Source of the DNA: a virus | Taxonomy: Duplodnaviria; Heunggongvirae; Uroviricota; Caudoviricetes | DNA: 30,192 nt | Virus record (IMG/VR): IMGVR_UViG_3300029071_000017 | Strand: one strand, 5' to 3' | Part shown: positions 3,010 to 28,823 of the stretch, piece by piece | Layout: the number at the start of each line of letters is the position of its first letter | Position numbering within the stretch: the stretch's first letter is position 1 | The notes under the pieces: generated by a model | What the model saw: only the letters and a program-made list of their open reading frames with translations | Told to the model about the DNA's origin: nothing | Databases searched by the model: none | Translations under genes and position numbers: made by a program

Positions 3010-6000
3010 TACCGATATGCTCCACTTAACCGACCACCATCACGGGCCTGCTGTTGCATAAAGTCCGCTGCAGCTTTTTTCCCGAGGTCATAAACCACCT
3101 TCAGGGCAGCCGGACCTATCTGCCCGTTCGTGCCATCGTTATTGATCTCGATGTTGTACTGCGGGGCAAACATCGCCATACCTGAACCACCAATATCCGC
3201 CACAACCCCCAGCTTACCGTCAGCACCACGACGCAGAGGCAGAATGGCTTCAGGCCCAGCTTCCCCCATCACACCTGCACCTTTTGCAAAAGCAAAAAAC
3301 GTCGGACGGTTAACCACCGTGCCACTGTAGCGACTCAAATCAGCAGACTGATAAACACCACCATCAGCATTGGGCGTCACACTGGCAGTTGCTGCACTCC
3401 CCCAGCCAAACGCCGAACCAATCCCCTTAACTGCCTGCATCATGGACATCTGGGCCATGATTTTTGCTAGATCAGAAAGGAGCGAGGCGGTAAAAGATTT
3501 GAAGTTCAGTTTTCCGGTAGTACAGAACGTTGCCAGTGCATTACCTGCACTGTTAAATGCCGCTGTAAGCATCTGCTCAGCAGTGCCTGCCGCATTATCC
3601 GCATCTGCCGTGAAATTCTGAAACGCCCGCATGGCACCGTTTTTCCAGTTACCCTGAGCAATTTCAAGCTGTTGCCAGTAACGGCGATTCTCATTCAGTT
3701 GTCGGTTCAGGCTCTCCGTCAGCGCCTGCTCGGCCTTTCTGTAGTCATCCGTGTTATATGTCCCTTTCTGCTCACTATCCCGCCTCAACTGCTCCAGCTG
3801 TTGCTGGTATTTCTGGCGAAGACTCAGTTGTACCTGATATCGCTGCCGCTGCTGATCACCCATACCCACCGTGGCGATATCCAGGTCATGTTGCTGACGC
3901 TGAGCGCGCTCTTCTTCAGCCAGTTGACTGGTCAGTTGAATTGTTTTTTTCTTCAGCTCGTTGAGTGCCGTCTGTTTCTGAAGCTCCTGCTGTTTTACAT
4001 CCAGCAGCGTCAATGCCTGAATCAGTTCATCTTTACGGGCAAGCACACTCTTTTCATCTGCCGTCAGTTTTTTCCCGTCCAGGTCGCTGATGCGCTGCTG
4101 CAGAGCCAGAAGCTGTTTATGCGCTTCTGTCATCTTTTCAGTGGCAATGCCTGCTGACTGTCTGGCAGCAGCAATCTGCCCTTCCACCTGTGCCTGTTGC
4201 TGACTGTACTGCAGCAATAACCGGGTGGCCTCATCATTACGGGTTTCGCGTGTTTTTTTCTTACCGGATGCCAGGGCTTTCTCGTAACGTTCATTTTCAC
4301 GTTGTATCGCCGCATCCCTGACAGCCTGATCGGCGTACTGCATGGCATTAATACGCGCAATTTCACGCTGATGTCGTGCTGCTTCCGTTTCATTCATCCG
4401 GTTCAGTGCAGCATTTTCAGCATTACGGCGTTTCTGTTGCTCCTGATAATTCCGCTCTGCCTGCTCTTTTGCATCCTGCAAATCCTTCTGGCGTTTTTTC
4501 TCCTGAAGATCGTTAAGACGCTGCTGATCGTATTCAACCTGAGAAGATGATGCCGTCCAGGGGAGTCTTTTCGCCCGCGACACTTTCTCCTGTAAAGCGG
4601 CAATCTGTTCATCCAGCGAGTCTTCACGACCAATATTCATGGCCGCATCCCAGAACTGCTTCCACCAGTCAGACAAGGTTTGCAGCGTGCTACCCAGCGC
4701 ATTGAGGTTATTATCAATATCCGCAGTACGCCGACCGGTTTCCTCTGCCAGTGCAGACATGGCTATCCGTGCAGCATCACTGGACCGTCCCTGATCCCCA
4801 AGGACGCGTATCTGCTCAAGCTGAGTGGCAGTAAGAAAATGCAGCTCATTGTCCAGAGCCTTCGCGGCATTTACAGGATCATCCTTCAGCCGCTTAAACT
4901 GACTTATGGTATCGCTGACCGACTGGCCAACCGATCGCTCCATCTGTGCGGCAGCTCTCGCCACCATACCGATATCGTTTCCACGAAATGCACCACTCCC
5001 CACCACCTGAGCCAGCGCACCGGCTGCAGCATGTTGCGTGATACCATTCCCGGAAATAGCACGACTGAGCGTCCACAGTTGCCCGGCAGTGACTCCGGCA
5101 TAATGCCCCGTCAGCGACAACTGGCGGTTAAATTCTTCCCCCTCCTTCTGACCGTCATACCAGGCTTTACCCAGACCATAGACGGCCGCGGCAATACCGC
5201 CAATAACCCCGCCCAGCATCATGCCTTTCGGTGACATCAGTGTGTCTATCCATCCGGCACGGTTAGCCAGCGTTATCCCGGATCCCCTCAGCGCACCTAA
5301 ATTGCCGCGGGCCAGTTCACCTATCAGAACGCCTATCTCCTGGCGGGCCGCTGCACTTTTCAGACCCAGCGAATGCGTGGCTTTTCCTGCCTGCTCCATT
5401 TTGCGGATATACACTTCTGCAGCACTGCTTACCCCCAGTTGGGCAGCCTTAGCACGAAGCAACTCAGAAGAAGAAAGATTCTGGCGGGTTGCCTGCTCTT
5501 TAAGCTGACGGATAAACGCCACTTTCTGTCGGGTAGACTCTTCCTCAGCCTGTGTAAGAACACGGGTTTTCGCAGTAACCTCAGAAATCAGCGCCAGATA
5601 ATCCTGCTGACCAATCCCGCCACTGTTTCTGGCCTGTCGGATCTGCTGCTGAATACGCTGTAATTCCTGCAGCCCCGCACTGGCCTGTTTCACACTGTCA
5701 ATCTGACGATAAAACGCAGCAGCCGCTTTATCCTGAGCCTCCGCCAGAGCCATGGCCTGCGCCTGTTCCTCGCGCATTTTCTGGCTCAGCGCCTCCATGC
5801 GCTGGTGGGTTTTCTCCACCTCGCGGGCCATGCGTTCATGAGCCTGTGCGTTCTTCTCCACCGTCTGCGCATGGACGGATGCGGCTGTTGCAGCCGAAGA
5901 AGCCGCCTGCGTTGTCTGCCGGGCGGCCTGAGTCTGACGCTCCATAAAACGCTGCATACGGGCAGAAGACCGTTCTGCATCGCTGGCTGCACCATTCAGA

Positions 6001-6083
6001 AGGTTTTTGATACGGGGGATTTCATTTTTAAACTCTGCCGCATCAATCCCCAAATCAATGACCAGGTTGGCTATCTGGTCCAT
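3009..6083 (-). CDS. H: Tail tape-measure protein H (about 1024 aa, longer than lambda H)
   Basis: Long coiled-coil-rich ORF; C-terminus ...EINNDGTNGQIGPAALKVVYD... resembles the lambda gpH C-terminus; start placed at Met 11 (MDQIANLVIDLGIDAAEF), which resembles the lambda H N-terminus. Confidence 0.85.
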   Translation of the reverse strand: MDQIANLVIDLGIDAAEFKNEIPRIKNLLNGAASDAERSSARMQRFMERQTQAARQTTQAASSAATAASVHAQTVEKNAQAHERMAREVEKTHQRMEALSQKMREEQAQAMALAEAQDKAAAAFYRQIDSVKQASAGLQELQRIQQQIRQARNSGGIGQQDYLALISEVTAKTRVLTQAEEESTRQKVAFIRQLKEQATRQNLSSSELLRAKAAQLGVSSAAEVYIRKMEQAGKATHSLGLKSAAARQEIGVLIGELARGNLGALRGSGITLANRAGWIDTLMSPKGMMLGGVIGGIAAAVYGLGKAWYDGQKEGEEFNRQLSLTGHYAGVTAGQLWTLSRAISGNGITQHAAAGALAQVVGSGAFRGNDIGMVARAAAQMERSVGQSVSDTISQFKRLKDDPVNAAKALDNELHFLTATQLEQIRVLGDQGRSSDAARIAMSALAEETGRRTADIDNNLNALGSTLQTLSDWWKQFWDAAMNIGREDSLDEQIAALQEKVSRAKRLPWTASSSQVEYDQQRLNDLQEKKRQKDLQDAKEQAERNYQEQQKRRNAENAALNRMNETEAARHQREIARINAMQYADQAVRDAAIQRENERYEKALASGKKKTRETRNDEATRLLLQYSQQQAQVEGQIAAARQSAGIATEKMTEAHKQLLALQQRISDLDGKKLTADEKSVLARKDELIQALTLLDVKQQELQKQTALNELKKKTIQLTSQLAEEERAQRQQHDLDIATVGMGDQQRQRYQVQLSLRQKYQQQLEQLRRDSEQKGTYNTDDYRKAEQALTESLNRQLNENRRYWQQLEIAQGNWKNGAMRAFQNFTADADNAAGTAEQMLTAAFNSAGNALATFCTTGKLNFKSFTASLLSDLAKIMAQMSMMQAVKGIGSAFGWGSAATASVTPNADGGVYQSADLSRYSGTVVNRPTFFAFAKGAGVMGEAGPEAILPLRRGADGKLGVVADIGGSGMAMFAPQYNIEINNDGTNGQIGPAALKVVYDLGKKAAADFMQQQARDGGRLSGAYR

Positions 6084-6405
6084 AACGCACACCTCCGGAA
6101 ATACCTTCCCCAAGATGCATCAGTTCTTCGTCCGTTCGCTCCGGTATCCCGTTCTCTTCCGGTAAAAGGCTGAAATCAGCCACCGCAGCATCACTGCTGC
6201 CGGACACCATTCTCACGATCAATGCCTTCAGCGAGGCAAACTGCGCATCCATCCACACATCACTGAAGCTCTGCATCCGGAAATAATCGCCCCACTCACC
6301 AAGCTCAGTGGCCGACATTTCCGACAGCATCCGCCGCCAGTCTGCCCGCCGGAACTCCCGGGCAAGCCGCATGACAAACTGCATTTCCCGCGTCAGGACT
6401 TTTCC
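6055..6405 (-). CDS. T: T segment of tail assembly chaperone G-T, reached by programmed -1 frameshift from G
   Basis: ORF 6055-6384 lies in the -1 frame relative to G and stays open upstream to about 6417; a GGAAAAG slippery-like heptamer sits at the 3' end of G (about 6399-6405), at the position of the lambda G-T shift site. Confidence 0.6.
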   Translation of the reverse strand, partial: GKVLTREMQFVMRLAREFRRADWRRMLSEMSATELGEWGDYFRMQSFSDVWMDAQFASLKALIVRMVSGSSDAAVADFSLLPEENGIPERTDEELMHLGEGISGGVRYGPDSQPGH

Positions 6406-6779
6406 GGCGTCAGCGCCTCATGCTCATCATCCCCGGCATTATCAATGGTCCCCATACCGCTCAGCGACAGAACCATCTCCGCCCCCGCACCCAGGGCATC
6501 ATACGACCATGTTGTAATAACGGATGCGCAAAGCGTCTCTACATCCTTAGACTGATCCGCATTCCACAGTGAGCGGGAAACCAGCCAGGCATTGATATCC
6601 ATCCCCATCCGCAGAAAAGCAATCTGTCGTTCAGCCTCCGGCAGTTCTCCCTCTTCGGCATCAAACTTTGCCGTTCGCTGCTGAACAAACGCCAGATATT
6701 CAATTCTCTGCAGCCCGGACAGCTCACTGAGCACCACGGACTGCTTTTCATAATTAAACGTGCCCTGTTTCAGAAACAT
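6393..6779 (-). CDS. G: Tail assembly chaperone G
   Basis: ORF 6393-6821; real start probably the MMFLKQGTFNYEKQ Met (cf. lambda G MFLK...) with GGAG 6 nt upstream; the ORF-track N-terminal extension runs through a terminator hairpin. Confidence 0.8.
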   Translation of the reverse strand: MFLKQGTFNYEKQSVVLSELSGLQRIEYLAFVQQRTAKFDAEEGELPEAERQIAFLRMGMDINAWLVSRSLWNADQSKDVETLCASVITTWSYDALGAGAEMVLSLSGMGTIDNAGDDEHEALTPEKS

Positions 6780-6794
6780 CATGTTCTCCACCTG

Positions 6795-6820
6795 CAAAAA
6801 AGCCCCGGATAACCGGGGCA
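6795..6820 (-). terminator. Intrinsic terminator (or attenuator) between major tail gene V and G
   Basis: Minus strand: GCCCCGG-TTAT-CCGGGGC hairpin followed by a run of 6-7 T, just downstream of the V stop and upstream of the G RBS. Approximate coordinates. Confidence 0.6.
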
Positions 6821-15542: not shown

Positions 15543-15711
15543 ATTTCCTCCGGAGAGCTTTAAACATGCATCGTGCGAACAACTTTAAGAAAACGCGTTC
15601 GATGTCGAACAAAAAACACTCAATTCGACATACAAAAAACAAACAACCATTAATAATCAATAAGATGTAAAGATGATGGTGGCCGATAAAAATGCAAAAA
15701 CTAGCCTTTTT

Positions 15712-15732
15712 CCGCGACGCTCCCGCCCCGTG
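15712..15732 (-). other. cosN-like cohesive-end site
   Basis: Minus strand reads ACGGGGCGGGAGCGTCGCGG, compared with lambda cos ACGGGGCGGCGACCTCGCGG as I recall it, about 180 nt upstream of the terminase small-subunit start as in lambda. Approximate coordinates. Confidence 0.6.
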
Positions 15733-16181
15733 GCAAGACCCCCCACCGGGAGGACCCGTCAGCCTGACAGCTCTGACGAACGTCTGATACCGCGCCTTGC
15801 ATGAATGGCATCGGGATAATCCAGAAAGGTATAGCATCGTACCCACAAGAATCTGTGTGAGTGTCCTGTTTCTTCCACCCCCGCACAGGACTGGCGAGCA
15901 TGAGGGACAAACCCGCGAATCATTAGCGCGGTAAAAACCCGGTGTGCATCGTTTTTGATTATTCCCGCACACTCGCGCAGAAGGAGTTCCCCGTCGGGCT
16001 ACGGTCTCTGTTAATGGGGGAATACGGCGACGATACGGCGCACAGAAATAGATCAGAAATCTATTGCCCACAATCCACATAAAGGCAATACATTGCATGA
16101 GCACAGGTAATCGCCTATGCTCATGTATTGGCATTCTTTTGCCGCCGGCGAATCTTCAGCGGATTATCCTTGGCCGGTTTT

Positions 16182-16625
16182 TTATCTGAGGCATTGCTCG
16201 CTAATATATAGCTGTGCCCCCTCCAGTTGTTTTTGCATCAATATCAGCCGCTCTCTGAGGGTGAAATAATCCCGTTCAGCGGTGTCTGCCAGTCGGGGGG
16301 AGGCTGCATTATCCACGCCGGAGGCGGTGGTGGCTTCACGCACTGACTGACAGACTGCTTTGATGTGCAACCGACGACGACCAGCGGCAACATCATCACG
16401 CAGAGCATCATTTTCAGCTTTCGCATTGGCTAATTCTCTCGAGTACTTTGCATCGAGCGCAGCAACATCACGTTGACGCTTCTGCATATCAGCGATGATG
16501 GATGCGGCTTTATCGCGCTGCTCTTTGTAGGTCATGGCGTTATCACGGTAATGATTAACAGCCCATGACAGGCAGACGATGATGCAGATAACCAGAGCGG
16601 AGATAATCGCGGTGACTCTGCTCAT
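16182..16625 (-). CDS. Rz: i-spanin Rz
   Basis: 147-aa [33 protein letters not shown]..., near-identical to lambda Rz. Confidence 0.9.
16244..16426 (-). CDS. Rz1: o-spanin Rz1 (lipoprotein) embedded in Rz in another frame
   Basis: 60-aa [27 protein letters not shown]...[15 protein letters not shown] with lipobox VVGC; near-identical to lambda Rz1. Confidence 0.85.
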
Positions 16626-17101: not shown

Positions 17102-17437
17102 TTACTCCTTCGAGCTACCAAATTTGTTACCGATTACTCGCATTGCAGCCCCACGAATAGCATCGACACCGATCAGCCCAACGCCGCCACCAATGGCAAC
17201 AGAAAGAGATTTAGGCCATCCGACATACTCAAGAGCGGATGCAAAAGTCAGCGTCAGAGCACCACAGAGCAAAATCTCGAGCGTTTTTCGCTTCCAGCCA
17301 CCACCACCGCCAAAATAGGCAATGCGCAAGCCAGCCATAACGATCGACATAATCACTGCGCCCAGCGGTGTGTCTCCACGCCACCAGCTCTGAAACAACT
17401 CCAGCCAGTCCGGCCAGGTATTTGGGTTATGAGGCAT
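17102..17437 (-). CDS. Holin (not lambda S type)
   Basis: 111-aa ORF immediately upstream of R with about three hydrophobic segments and a charged C-terminus; first gene after the late terminator. Confidence 0.6.
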   Translation of the reverse strand: MPHNPNTWPDWLELFQSWWRGDTPLGAVIMSIVMAGLRIAYFGGGGGWKRKTLEILLCGALTLTFASALEYVGWPKSLSVAIGGGVGLIGVDAIRGAAMRVIGNKFGSSKE

Positions 17438-17576: not shown

Positions 17577-17611
17577 CCCAGAAACGACAAAACCCGCTCA
17601 TCGGCGGGTTT
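17577..17611 (-). terminator. Candidate late terminator tR' (hairpin plus U-rich tract) upstream of the holin
   Basis: Minus strand: AAACCCGC-CGATGA-GCGGGTTT hairpin followed by TGTCGTTTCTGG. Approximate coordinates. Confidence 0.5.
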
Positions 17612-17703
17612 AAGCTGTGTGGCGAAGTAACCACTCTTAACACATTACATGATAAAATGCGGACCGCGTTAGTAATATTTTTCTCATATATTGGGTTCAC
17701 TAC

Positions 17704-18450
17704 ATGCGACATAATTTTTCTAAAGACACTATAAAAAAATTAGCAGAGCGGGCAGCATTCATTTGTTCAAACCCTTCATGCCCTAGATTGACCATTGGCC
17801 CATCAATTGATGGCAATAAATCAATCAAGACAGGAGTTGCTGCTCACATATGTGCAGCATCTCCTGATGGCCCACGCTATGACATGTCACAATCAGAAAC
17901 AGAAAGGAAGTCAATTAACAATGGCATATGGCTGTGTGCTACTTGTTCTGTATTAATAGATAAGAATCAGGGGCTAGACTATCCGGCACCTGTATTAAGA
18001 AAATGGAAAAAAGATCATGAAAGCCTTATAAGCTCCTGTCTTGAAGGTTCGATTAATATTACCTTCGATGCTTTGAAATATATTCAACAGCATGATGAAA
18101 GAAATCTGGCAAAAAAGATTATAAATGAATTGGATGATAAAGGGGCTTTGTTCGTAGAATATCATCTTGAAAACCCCTGTTTTGTTGCCGAATCACTCAA
18201 AGAGTTAAGAACCTGTTTGACCTCTTTGCTTTCTCAAATCCCAGATGAATCACCTCTATTTATCGTTTGCAAGTCAATTCGAGAAGCATGCCGTTATTAT
18301 ATGAACAACACTTCTAAAGACGCAGGGATTAAAGAGTTAGAATTTTCGTTGGGAGCTGTCAGAAAAATCGTAGGTATCAACGTTAAAAGAATATCAGAAA
18401 CCTACGGGGTTAAACCTAGCCCACAATTATCTACCATAATGCCAGATTAA
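17704..18450 (+). CDS. Moron-encoded protein with HNH-like Cys/His motifs; function unknown
   Basis: 248-aa ORF on the strand opposite to the late genes, AT-rich relative to flanks; N-terminal C-x4-C ... AHI ... NGIWLCATC pattern; own downstream terminator. Confidence 0.6.
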   Translation: MRHNFSKDTIKKLAERAAFICSNPSCPRLTIGPSIDGNKSIKTGVAAHICAASPDGPRYDMSQSETERKSINNGIWLCATCSVLIDKNQGLDYPAPVLRKWKKDHESLISSCLEGSINITFDALKYIQQHDERNLAKKIINELDDKGALFVEYHLENPCFVAESLKELRTCLTSLLSQIPDESPLFIVCKSIREACRYYMNNTSKDAGIKELEFSLGAVRKIVGINVKRISETYGVKPSPQLSTIMPD

Positions 18451-18458
18451 ATCTGTTA

Positions 18459-18500
18459 CGCAGCAACAAAGTTAAACTCTATGTTGCTGCCTTAATTTTA
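18459..18500 (+). terminator. Intrinsic terminator of the moron gene
   Basis: GCAGCAACA-(13 nt loop)-TGTTGCTGC followed by CTTAATTTTATT, right after the moron stop and just downstream of the Q stop. Approximate coordinates. Confidence 0.6.
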
Positions 18501-18863
18501 TTACTCCATTTCTAAACGAATATCCAGCATCGAGAGACAACCATCTATAAACCCTTCAGCCAACTGTATCTCTATACGTATCAATTTCTCATCTTTTTTG
18601 TATGCTTTTGCTATCTTCCTTTTCGAGATGCCATACAGGTAATGAGCCACAATCAGAGAGTGCTCATATGGTTTTCTCTTCTTAAGAAGAGCAAGACAAC
18701 CTTCAATAATTAATGCATCACTATCTGAACAAGCCTGACGTGTTTTGCTTGTATAGGGAAGAAGCCCTTTAAACCCAGCAGCTATAGGAGAATAGTCTAC
18801 TCCAGAACTATCACTCGCCGCCCATGCTCCCCAACGATCCAGAACCATCTGAATATCACGCAT
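18501..18863 (-). CDS. Late antiterminator Q (phage 82 / QuuD-like type)
   Basis: ORF 18501-18878; start set at MRDIQMVLDRWGAWAA... with GGAG upstream; C-terminal ...EGFIDGCLSMLDIRLEM resembles 82-type Q proteins as I recall them. Confidence 0.7.
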   Translation of the reverse strand: MRDIQMVLDRWGAWAASDSSGVDYSPIAAGFKGLLPYTSKTRQACSDSDALIIEGCLALLKKRKPYEHSLIVAHYLYGISKRKIAKAYKKDEKLIRIEIQLAEGFIDGCLSMLDIRLEME

Positions 18864-18880
18864 CAACTTTCTCCACAAAA

Positions 18881-19042
18881 TCAGGCCAGCACGCCAGTTG
18901 CCAGTGCACGATCGATAAAACGAAATATCAGCTCCAGCTGGGAGCCATATTTCTCTTCAAATGCCACGGTATCCGCATGCAGCTCGTCGTGATGCTTTCT
19001 GCACAAAGGCAACACAAAGAGGTCATGCGCTTTTGTACCCAT
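18881..19042 (-). CDS. Small hypothetical protein (about 53 aa) upstream of Q
   Basis: Not in the ORF track (under 60 aa); my own translation gives MGTKAHDLFVLPLCRKHHDELHADTVAFEEKYG... with an AGGGTGGA RBS. Coordinates hand-derived. Confidence 0.3.
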   Translation of the reverse strand: MGTKAHDLFVLPLCRKHHDELHADTVAFEEKYGSQLELIFRFIDRALATGVLA

Positions 19043-19099: not shown

Positions 19100-19184
19100 N
19101 NNNNNNNNNNNNNNNNNNNNNNNNNNNNNNNNNNNNNNNNNNNNNNNNNNNNNNNNNNNNNNNNNNNNNNNNNNNNNNNNNNNN
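19100..19184. other. Assembly gap (85 N)
   Basis: Run of n characters in the sequence. Confidence 1.
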
Positions 19185-28747: not shown

Positions 28748-28823
28748 TGGTGCCGATAATAGGAGTCGAACCTACGACCTTCGCATTACGAATGCGCTGC
28801 TCTACCAACTGAGCTATATCGGC
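28748..28823 (-). tRNA. thrW: tRNA-Thr (anticodon CGU), thrW-type; prophage attachment site at its 3' end
   Basis: Reverse complement reads GCCGATATAGCTCAGTTGGTAGAGCAGCGCATTCGTAATGCGAAGGTCGTAGGTTCGACTCCTATTATCGGCACCA: 7-bp acceptor stem, CGT anticodon in a 7-nt loop, T-arm GGTTCGACTCC, 3' CCA. Coordinates within 1 bp. Confidence 0.9.

Follow-up and report, generated by a model that had tools for sequence, protein, structure and literature searches.

HNH nuclease domains and DUF6650 domains are both already known as parts of bacterial immune systems, as are cargo hotspots in prophages. In type VI Thoeris, described in a preprint of December 2025, infection prompts a TIR protein to make the cyclic ADP-ribose (cADPR) isomer 2'cADPR, whereupon growth is arrested by the DUF6650 protein ThsG (10.64898/2025.12.03.692087). 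ThsG consists of DUF6650 alone or of DUF6650 with N-terminal transmembrane (TM) helices and has been modelled as a hexamer of identical subunits, forming a tube with basic pockets between protomers; according to the authors of the preprint, the toxicity of the TM-less proteins is unexplained. Two of the validated type VI systems come from E. coli (10.64898/2025.12.03.692087). A DUF6650-like C-terminus (HHpred 0.88) has also been reported for DS-27 'SMEK' (WP_087896215.1), a single gene from an E. coli strain that, cloned alone, was validated in MG1655 (PMC13092281). Amongst HNH effectors, PsCap5 uses His56 as general base and holds Mg by His91 and Asp95, and two of the four HNH domains in the Cap5 tetramer serve DNA binding only (PMC12141522). 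The HNH-APAZ protein of SPARHA (PDB 9om4), an immune effector partnered with a short Argonaute, has an HNH domain that is activated by filament assembly (PMC12738770). In the defence hotspots of P2/P4 prophages and satellites, unrelated accessory genes interchange between conserved flanks at a fixed position of a temperate phage (PMC9122126). Here we describe a gene that joins an HNH domain to DUF6650 and is carried as cargo in IMG/VR virus record IMGVR_UViG_3300029071_000017, a DNA of 30,192 nucleotides that was analysed as a whole and is referred to below as the window.

The DNA of the window comes from an E. coli lambdoid prophage that has inserted at tRNA-Thr(CGT) (28748-28823); among its genes are those for integrase, lambda-type terminase, portal, ClpP-capsid fusion and tape measure proteins. 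An original prediction, made from the sequence, had placed a plus-strand open reading frame (ORF) of 248 amino acids (aa) between the antiterminator gene Q and the holin gene, and its coordinates, strand and ATG start are confirmed here (Table 1). The encoded protein belongs to a family of 335 homologues, with full-length members of ~250 aa, that is mostly chromosomal and found across phyla. Compared with an 83%-identical allele the gene has a dN/dS of 0.087, demonstrating that this cargo gene is under strong purifying selection. From the evidence set out below we think it fairly probable that the cargo is a single-gene accessory 'moron' cassette encoding a self-contained, prophage-borne immune nuclease, with a predicted function and a predicted trigger.

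The N-terminal domain is an HNH domain of the Cap5 type

The motifs C-x4-C ... A-H-I ... N-G-x-W-L-C-x2-C, which the original prediction had likened to a possibly degenerate His-Me finger (HNH) core in the N-terminal third of the protein, are present as read (C21-x4-C26, A-H48-I and N72-N73-G-I-W-L-C78-x2-C81). Since C21, C26, H48, N73, C78, C81 and D86 are found without exception in the 120 homologues aligned, from several phyla, these Cys/His motifs do not occur by chance. PADLOC models for the HNH domains of defence effectors match residues 1-130, namely PDC-M68A (7.5e-27), the 'Endonuclease' effector of the cyclic oligonucleotide-based antiphage signalling system (CBASS; 4.8e-21), SAVED_HNH (4e-19) and SduA (4.7e-8). 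When a family profile was compared with the PDB, residues ~10-120 matched SPARHA HNH-APAZ (9om4, 3.1e-13) and the Cap5 entries 8ysq, 7rwk, 7rwm and 8fm1. An AlphaFold2 (AF2) model built with the 120-sequence alignment (pLDDT 92.3, pTM 0.87) contains a beta-beta-alpha element, comprising a strand at residues 45-48 that ends at H48, a second strand at 74-77 and a helix at 79-84. The top seven Foldseek matches of this model in the PDB are all Cap5 (probability 1.0, ~115 residues, root-mean-square deviation 3.1-3.3 A), with HNH restriction enzymes of the McrA type far behind in the ranking. The region around the Cys and His residues is thus a genuine HNH nuclease domain, and PADLOC, PDB profiles and Foldseek agree in assigning it to the Cap5 immune-effector subtype.

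Alignment with PsCap5 equates H48 with the general base His56, C78-x2-C81 with CPGC, D86 with the Mg ligand Asp95 and S82 with the second Mg ligand, His91. N73 aligns with an Asn of the Cap5 and SPARHA HNH domains, the next helix of Cap5 ('W-K-x-D-H-E') also has its counterpart here, and equivalents of the zinc knuckle (CxxxxC, CxxC/H) are seen in 8ysq, 9om4 and 8fm1. The earlier suspicion of degeneracy holds for a single position: residue 82 is Ser or Ala across the whole family and, because a Mg ligand is thereby replaced, catalysis is not guaranteed. The general base, the Asn, the Asp and the Cys4 set are invariant, however, so that the N-terminal domain reads from its residues as a Cap5-type HNH domain in which the base, the Asn, one metal ligand and the Cys4 knuckle are intact and the second metal ligand is replaced. 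Such a domain is likely to be an active nuclease. The alternative is that the HNH domain is catalytically dead and serves as a zinc-stabilised DNA-binding or scaffold module, with toxicity arising from DUF6650 itself; this would accommodate the replacement of His91, the unexplained toxicity of stand-alone DUF6650 effectors (10.64898/2025.12.03.692087) and the Cap5 tetramer, in which half of the HNH domains only bind DNA (PMC12141522). We regard it as distinctly improbable, as the invariance of H48, N73 and D86 in the 120 sequences is hard to explain without catalysis and the solved Cap5 8ysq, in our alignment, likewise lacks a His at the position of His91. Several beta-beta-alpha-metal nucleases, moreover, hold their metal by a single Asn, Asp or His ligand.

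The cargo protein thus shares with Cap5 (7rwk, 8fm1/8fmf/8fmh, 9dif/9dih, 8ysq) the HNH subtype and a layout of N-terminal nuclease and putative C-terminal sensor. It differs in having 248 aa rather than ~370-390 aa, in carrying a DUF6650 four-helix bundle in place of SAVED, in the Ser/Ala substitution and in the absence of a cGAS/DncV-like nucleotidyltransferase (CD-NTase) gene nearby. All Cap5 and SAVED_HNH matches end at about residue 115-130, and the protein contains no SAVED domain, the part of Cap5 that binds a cyclic oligonucleotide. SPARHA HNH-APAZ, the best PDB sequence match to the cargo HNH, differs in its APAZ domain and its association with a short Argonaute; no prokaryotic Argonaute (pAgo) accompanies the cargo gene. 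For PDC-M68A, the best PADLOC match, similarity is confined to positions 1-130 of the 253-position profile and the C-terminal halves differ; PDC-M68 is a listed multi-gene candidate, on whose other components nothing was found in the literature searched. The nearest HNH-only relatives have the same invariant C..C..H..N..C..C..D pattern, and their HNH domain is followed by STAND NTPase/TPR, AAA or unannotated C-termini, in keeping with a transferable effector module to which different sensor domains can be attached. In the viral structure library BFVD nothing matched at E <= 0.001 and phage HNH endonucleases came up only at E > 0.3, which argues against a homing or packaging HNH. A packaging-associated HNH was also considered and rejected; the related GCUET01 prophage has a separate, terminase-adjacent HNH.

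A DUF6650 domain forms the C-terminal half

The C-terminal ~150 aa, in which the original prediction had recognised no motif, proved to be a DUF6650/ThsG-type domain (PF20355; residues ~113-248). Precomputed annotation assigns PF20355.5 to all listed homologues, including the 95%-identical P0001, with no weak flag in the locus tables, and the newer RefSeq name for the counterpart of the cargo protein is 'DUF6650 family protein'. Local Pfam (PF20355.3), NCBIfam and single-sequence PDB searches returned no identification for this half. The local PF20355.3 model misses the fused branch and matches stand-alone proteins that a profile of the C-terminal domain finds at ~1e-19 to 1e-26; because these stand-alone relatives of the fused branch are PF20355-positive locally, we interpret the disagreement between PF20355.3 and PF20355.5 as an effect of model version. 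Amongst 1.84 billion proteins the C-terminal profile identifies 1172 cluster representatives, the majority of them stand-alone and 150-175 aa long (two of these stand-alone matches were checked and both are PF20355-positive in local Pfam), and a word-indexed search with the same profile gave 3 fragments only. Residues 132-247 also match phrog_29952, a phage family that consists of the DUF6650 domain alone.

In the AF2 model the domain is formed by helices 133-144, 158-176, 184-202 and 209-234 (pLDDT >90), and structure searches with it returned no informative solved relative. The residues listed for this domain in Table 1 are invariant in the fused branch and 87-100% conserved in 95 stand-alone proteins, which points to a functional site common to fused and stand-alone DUF6650. 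The protein resembles ThsG in that its C-terminal half belongs to PF20355 and in the E/S/R/R/R/G/P positions that it has in common with stand-alone DUF6650 proteins; unlike ThsG, which is encoded beside a TIR gene, it has an HNH nuclease domain and no TIR neighbour. DS-27 has the same single-gene layout of an N-terminal effector-like domain followed by a DUF6650-like region, but its N-terminal domain is SMEK (PF21941) rather than HNH and it has been validated experimentally, whereas the defence role of HNH-DUF6650 is predicted. DUF6650 copies that are HNH-fused, orphan or prophage-borne go unmentioned in the type VI Thoeris preprint and in two later papers. A representative-protein search also revealed a protein of 312 aa (P0234) in which TIR_2 (residues 11-143, 3.2e-18) is fused to DUF6650-like residues 164-242, offering independent 'Rosetta stone' support for a real functional link between TIR and DUF6650.

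Partner genes, TIR linkage and genomic context

BLAST clustering of 27 full-length loci from many phyla revealed no conserved neighbour other than Q and DUF968 in three enterobacterial prophages. When the 84 genes directly adjacent in 24 non-prophage loci were scanned with Pfam, no family was present in more than 3 of them, and the families listed did not include TIR. The window itself contains no TIR gene, and the neighbours of the cargo gene are Q and the holin gene, with no CD-NTase. In the non-prophage loci the neighbours include LmuA/B/C (Lamassu), Avs3a, SduA (Shedu), DrmD of DISARM, type I/IIG restriction-modification genes, PD-T4-1 and PDC-S03/S46, so that in other phyla the family is found in a defence-island context. 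WP_001406331.1, which is annotated at the cargo position in strain GCUET01 within a region 97.5% identical in DNA, is listed as a 'Predicted novel defense gene' with log-odds 8.58 in the DefensePredictor supplement (PMC13092281). The proposal that the ORF is a candidate single-gene defence effector, although still a prediction, thus gains from the absence of a conserved partner, the defence-island neighbours, the DefensePredictor call and the link through DUF6650 to validated systems.

For contrast we examined stand-alone DUF6650 genes in 80 metagenomic loci (L138-L217), representing a sub-branch with FLEDRRVLY/AACRKFLD motifs. No conserved partner was found in these loci either, and TIR proteins account for only 3 of 128 immediate neighbours; since stand-alone DUF6650 genes are mostly solitary there, type VI Thoeris covers a minority of the sampled sub-branch. 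The gene for HNH-DUF6650 is present in 40 of 5426 complete E. coli genomes, 25 of which have an allele of at least 99% identity and 15 an allele of ~70%, and the ACN001-type TIR-ThsG pair is present in 42 of the 5426. One genome carries both, compared with 0.31 expected by chance, and 39 of the 40 carriers lack the pair, a count that covers the ACN001 type alone. As only 1 of 40 carriers has both, the cargo gene does not depend on the ACN001-type system. The genome with both is that of LT2-3 (NZ_CM141449.1), with HNH-DUF6650 at 3421335-3422081 and ACN001-type type VI Thoeris at 1553638-1554876. The locus of this type in E. coli ACN001 (NZ_CP007442.1, 865470-866708), corresponds to positions 3225-4618 of an IMG/VR contig (L218) and is a validated type VI Thoeris system in a P2-like prophage hotspot, where the gene for a TM-ThsG overlaps the start of the TIR gene and portal and terminase genes adjoin.

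These surveys bear on whether the cargo protein is an orphan Thoeris-type effector, that is, a ThsG-like receptor of 2'cADPR or another cADPR isomer that would fire on a TIR signal produced elsewhere in the host or by another mobile element. Such a role would be consistent with the specific response of the type VI DUF6650 effector to 2'cADPR (10.64898/2025.12.03.692087), with the pocket-like residues E156, S164, R169, R197 and R220 held in common with stand-alone DUF6650 proteins, with the existence of TIR-DUF6650 fusions and with the occurrence of type VI Thoeris in E. coli, where it is itself prophage-borne and, in LT2-3, coexists with the cargo gene. It is nevertheless unlikely, given the single co-occurrence amongst 40 carriers, the absence of TIR from the recurrent neighbours of the 24 non-prophage loci, the scarcity of TIR genes next to stand-alone DUF6650 genes and the testing of the DUF6650-like DS-27 in MG1655 without a cloned partner (PMC13092281).

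The cargo gene is absent from all deposited phage records (n=50,697), and ~17 IMG/VR contigs have full-length matches to it. Amongst IMG/VR records, IMGVR_UViG_2541047787_000007 (L100, 5001-5743) holds a 97%-identical copy (743-nt match) with a reading frame that is broken after 150 aa and a dN/dS of ~1 relative to the window gene; this copy is apparently a recent pseudogene. In Novosphingobium anseongense (L030), two tandem paralogues of the HNH-containing gene are located on the same strand at 4560-5453 and 5935-6798.

A swappable cargo slot beside Q

As originally claimed, the ORF is AT-richer than its surroundings, with a GC content of 0.378 (0.305 at third codon positions) compared with 0.518 for the window, 0.53 for the holin gene and 0.574 for DUF968, but Q is AT-rich too, at 0.41. 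Comparison with sister loci by blastn defines sharp breakpoints: a conserved block on the lysis side ends at 17682/17684 and homology restarts at 18496, five bases past the Q stop codon. In phage 1720a-02 (L002) the cassette is absent and the homologous segments lie 36 bp apart, representing the empty site. At the same breakpoints strain 40EC (NZ_CP070920.1; L092, 2607-3470) carries an opposite-strand NYN gene, WP_000750482.1 (PF01936, 1.4e-9), and strain DCE7 (NZ_CP090611.1; L091, 2656-4044) carries an opposite-strand DUF6731 gene, WP_015987625.1, together with one for a 147-aa hypothetical protein, WP_015987624.1. By position, the NYN and DUF6731 cargo are further candidates for defence genes. 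The comparison across related prophages therefore bears out the idea that the Q-to-lysis junction is a cargo site. The slot is similar to the P2/P4 hotspots in exchanging unrelated cargo between conserved flanks at a fixed position (PMC9122126), and differs in lying, in lambdoid phages, with the Q stop codon on one side and the conserved late-promoter block on the other; we found no description of this slot as a defence hotspot in the literature that could be searched.

This anatomy also bears on whether the gene might be a free-standing HNH homing endonuclease, a selfish gene inserted between Q and the late promoter that propagates by cleaving unoccupied sites. Phage genomes commonly contain HNH homing endonucleases, and a discrete insertion of ~810 bp with sharp breakpoints and a matching empty site in a related phage is what such a gene would leave. 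Since identical breakpoints hold the unrelated NYN and DUF6731 cargo, however, exchange of cassettes by flanking homology accounts for the slot better than homing. The HNH domain is of the Cap5 subtype without a viral structure library match at the threshold given above, no DNA-recognition module was found in Pfam, PHROG and NCBIfam scans, the C-terminal domain being DUF6650, and family members are common across phyla in chromosomal settings outside phages. We therefore consider homing extremely unlikely.

On its late strand the conserved block has an intrinsic terminator (17611->17590). It further includes elements that are invariant in all cargo variants in the alignment, and it is also present in phages SfII, SfIV, phiP27, the Stx phages and 1720a-02. 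From its position it is presumed to be the late-promoter/qut/tR' module. The original prediction had placed the gene antisense to the late operon. This placement has to be revised, because the gene lies upstream of the block with the late-strand terminator that trails Q in cargo-free phages; the cargo gene is thus probably located between Q and the late promoter, outside the late transcript. The block must presumably also hold or abut the cargo gene's own promoter. Candidate promoter elements, picked by eye and unverified, are TGATAAAAT (17650-17658), TAATAT (17673-17678) and TATATT (17687-17692), the first of which is not conserved among the cargo variants. At the other end of the cassette, 10 nt 3' of the stop codon and within the variable segment, lies a stable hairpin (-15.2 kcal/mol, z = -4.7, with 0 of 200 shuffles as stable) followed by the tail CTTAATTTTATT. 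A simple terminator scan does not list it, and of the claim that the gene has its own stem-loop and T-tract terminator the stable hairpin and T-rich tail stand, as a terminator-like rather than canonical element. All enterobacterial alleles found (56-100% identity) are transcribed towards Q in convergent orientation, with Q-cargo gaps of 57-72 bp in 9 viral contigs and 27 bp in the prophage with the P0007 allele, and the arrangement in Buttiauxella is convergent as well.

Orientation is informative as to whether the gene is instead a counter-defence or inter-phage weapon, in which DUF6650 would sponge or sense a host signal on behalf of the phage, or the nuclease would attack competing elements or host DNA during phage development. 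Phage proteins that bind or degrade cADPR signals are known (10.64898/2025.12.03.692087), the gene is phage-borne with its ~17 full-length matches in viral contigs, and the DUF6650-only phage family phrog_29952 exists. The cassette, however, runs opposite to both phage operons and ends in a terminator-like hairpin of its own. In lambdoid phages this combination is usual for morons expressed in the lysogen and not for genes of the lytic phase. The family is also mostly chromosomal, residing among defence genes in other phyla, and invariant catalytic HNH residues would be needless in a sponge; we consider a role of this kind very unlikely.

Proposed mode of action

In the reading that we prefer, a self-contained immune nuclease, the cargo gene would have a promoter of its own from which it is transcribed in the lysogen, in the direction opposite to the phage operons, and its product would remain latent. 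The HNH effector modules of CBASS Cap5, SPARHA HNH-APAZ and Avs-like STAND proteins stay inactive until oligomerisation joins HNH domains on DNA; by analogy the cargo nuclease may be controlled likewise, with the DUF6650 four-helix bundle as a putative regulatory or sensor module and assembly switch. On superinfection, DUF6650 might bind a nucleotide-like ligand or another infection cue and then assemble or rearrange, the juxtaposed HNH domains would cut DNA non-specifically, and this cutting would abort the infection or exclude the incoming phage.

Several observations temper this proposal. In addition to the replaced Mg ligand at position 82, WP_001406331.1 appears in the DefensePredictor prediction table only and is not among the tested systems (PMC13092281), and a sigma-70 scan found no promoter meeting its criteria upstream of the cargo gene. 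The similarity of the C-terminal domain to described effectors is also weak: hhalign comparison of the C-terminal profile with a 14-sequence profile of ACN001-type ThsG is marginal (E 1.9e-4, probability 48%, 87 columns), a LEDRRxLY-like motif and the E/S/R equivalents aligning without conservation of the R197 equivalent, so that ligand specificity is not transferable from ThsG. The same comparison with the single ACN001 ThsG sequence gave nothing usable, and a comparison of the family profile with the single DS-27 sequence by hhalign showed no C-terminal similarity.

Other features of the window

Features of the cargo region are collected in Table 1. Rfam and ARAGORN detected no RNA gene within or near the cassette, and a toxin-antitoxin pair was rejected as it contains one credible ORF only.

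Table 1. Positions of the cargo gene, its predicted domains and the flanking features in the window (coordinates of the cargo ORF include the stop codon)
Feature	Position	Strand	Basis
Cargo gene, two-domain HNH-DUF6650 protein	17704..18450	+	ORF call, homologues, dN/dS, AF2 model
Predicted Cap5-type HNH (beta-beta-alpha-metal) domain, residues ~1-112	17704..18039	+	Cys4 knuckle C21, C26, C78, C81; base H48; N73; Mg ligand D86
DUF6650 (PF20355) four-helix bundle, residues ~113-248	18040..18447	+	Conserved E156, S164, R169, C196, R197, R220, G224, P247
Variable cargo cassette, ~810 bp (19-nt leader, ORF, hairpin)	17685..18495	.	blastn breakpoints compared with sister loci
Stem-loop followed by T-rich tail (18491-18502), terminator-like, ends cassette	18460..18490	+	RNA fold
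Conserved block, common to all cargo variants and the empty site	17589..17684	-	Terminator scan, conservation, alignment
Q antiterminator	18501..18878	-	PF06530 6.6e-52; convergent with cargo gene, 50-nt gap
Lambda-family holin S, lysis cassette gene 1	17102..17437	-	PF05106 2.6e-27

Upstream of Q, the DUF968 gene is broken by a run of 85 N (masked or unsequenced) at 19100-19184, and ORF calls there are artefactual. The C-terminus of the DUF968 protein beside Q (18881-19042 on the minus strand, and upstream) has a weak HNHc_6 match (0.0033), which may represent a second, unrelated HNH-like element in the same region. On the other side of the lysis genes, the ~640 bp between Rz and the DUF1441-type small terminase gene (15543-16181) contain implausible ORFs only, such as a 200-aa Cys/Arg-rich ORF on the minus strand; Rfam gave no match in this interval, which may be the cos/packaging region. 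A 60-aa ORF that lies out of frame inside Rz (16244-16426, minus strand) and has a lipoprotein-like signal (…LVVVGC) is the expected Rz1 spanin, an ordinary feature.

Implications

As outlined above, the two domains, prophage cargo hotspots and the computational defence flag on the RefSeq counterpart were known before; the HNH-DUF6650 architecture, its partner-less state and the swappable slot between Q and the late promoter are undescribed in the searchable literature. The protein joins an HNH effector of the CBASS/pAgo type to a DUF6650 module of the Thoeris type, and what is at stake is the generality of the TIR-DUF6650 pairing: either the signal comes from an unlinked source, or DUF6650 senses something else. 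A broader proposal, which we advance only tentatively and would not expect to hold without modification, is that DUF6650 is more than a receptor of TIR-made 2'cADPR, being a general, usually solitary, ring-forming sensor of an infection cue without a dedicated signal synthase, and that HNH-DUF6650 is a widespread family of one-protein immune nucleases occupying the Q-to-late-promoter slot.

For lambdoid prophages, the interval from the Q stop codon to the late promoter emerges as a swappable cargo site with further defence candidates. For DUF6650, the fusion to a putative nuclease provides an easy assay, through DNA cleavage or through growth arrest with exogenous 2'cADPR. If DUF6650 does sense without a synthase, DNA cleavage would be a direct readout of its activator, and this would address the mode of action of TM-less ThsG proteins and the cue to which they respond, questions left open by the work on type VI Thoeris.

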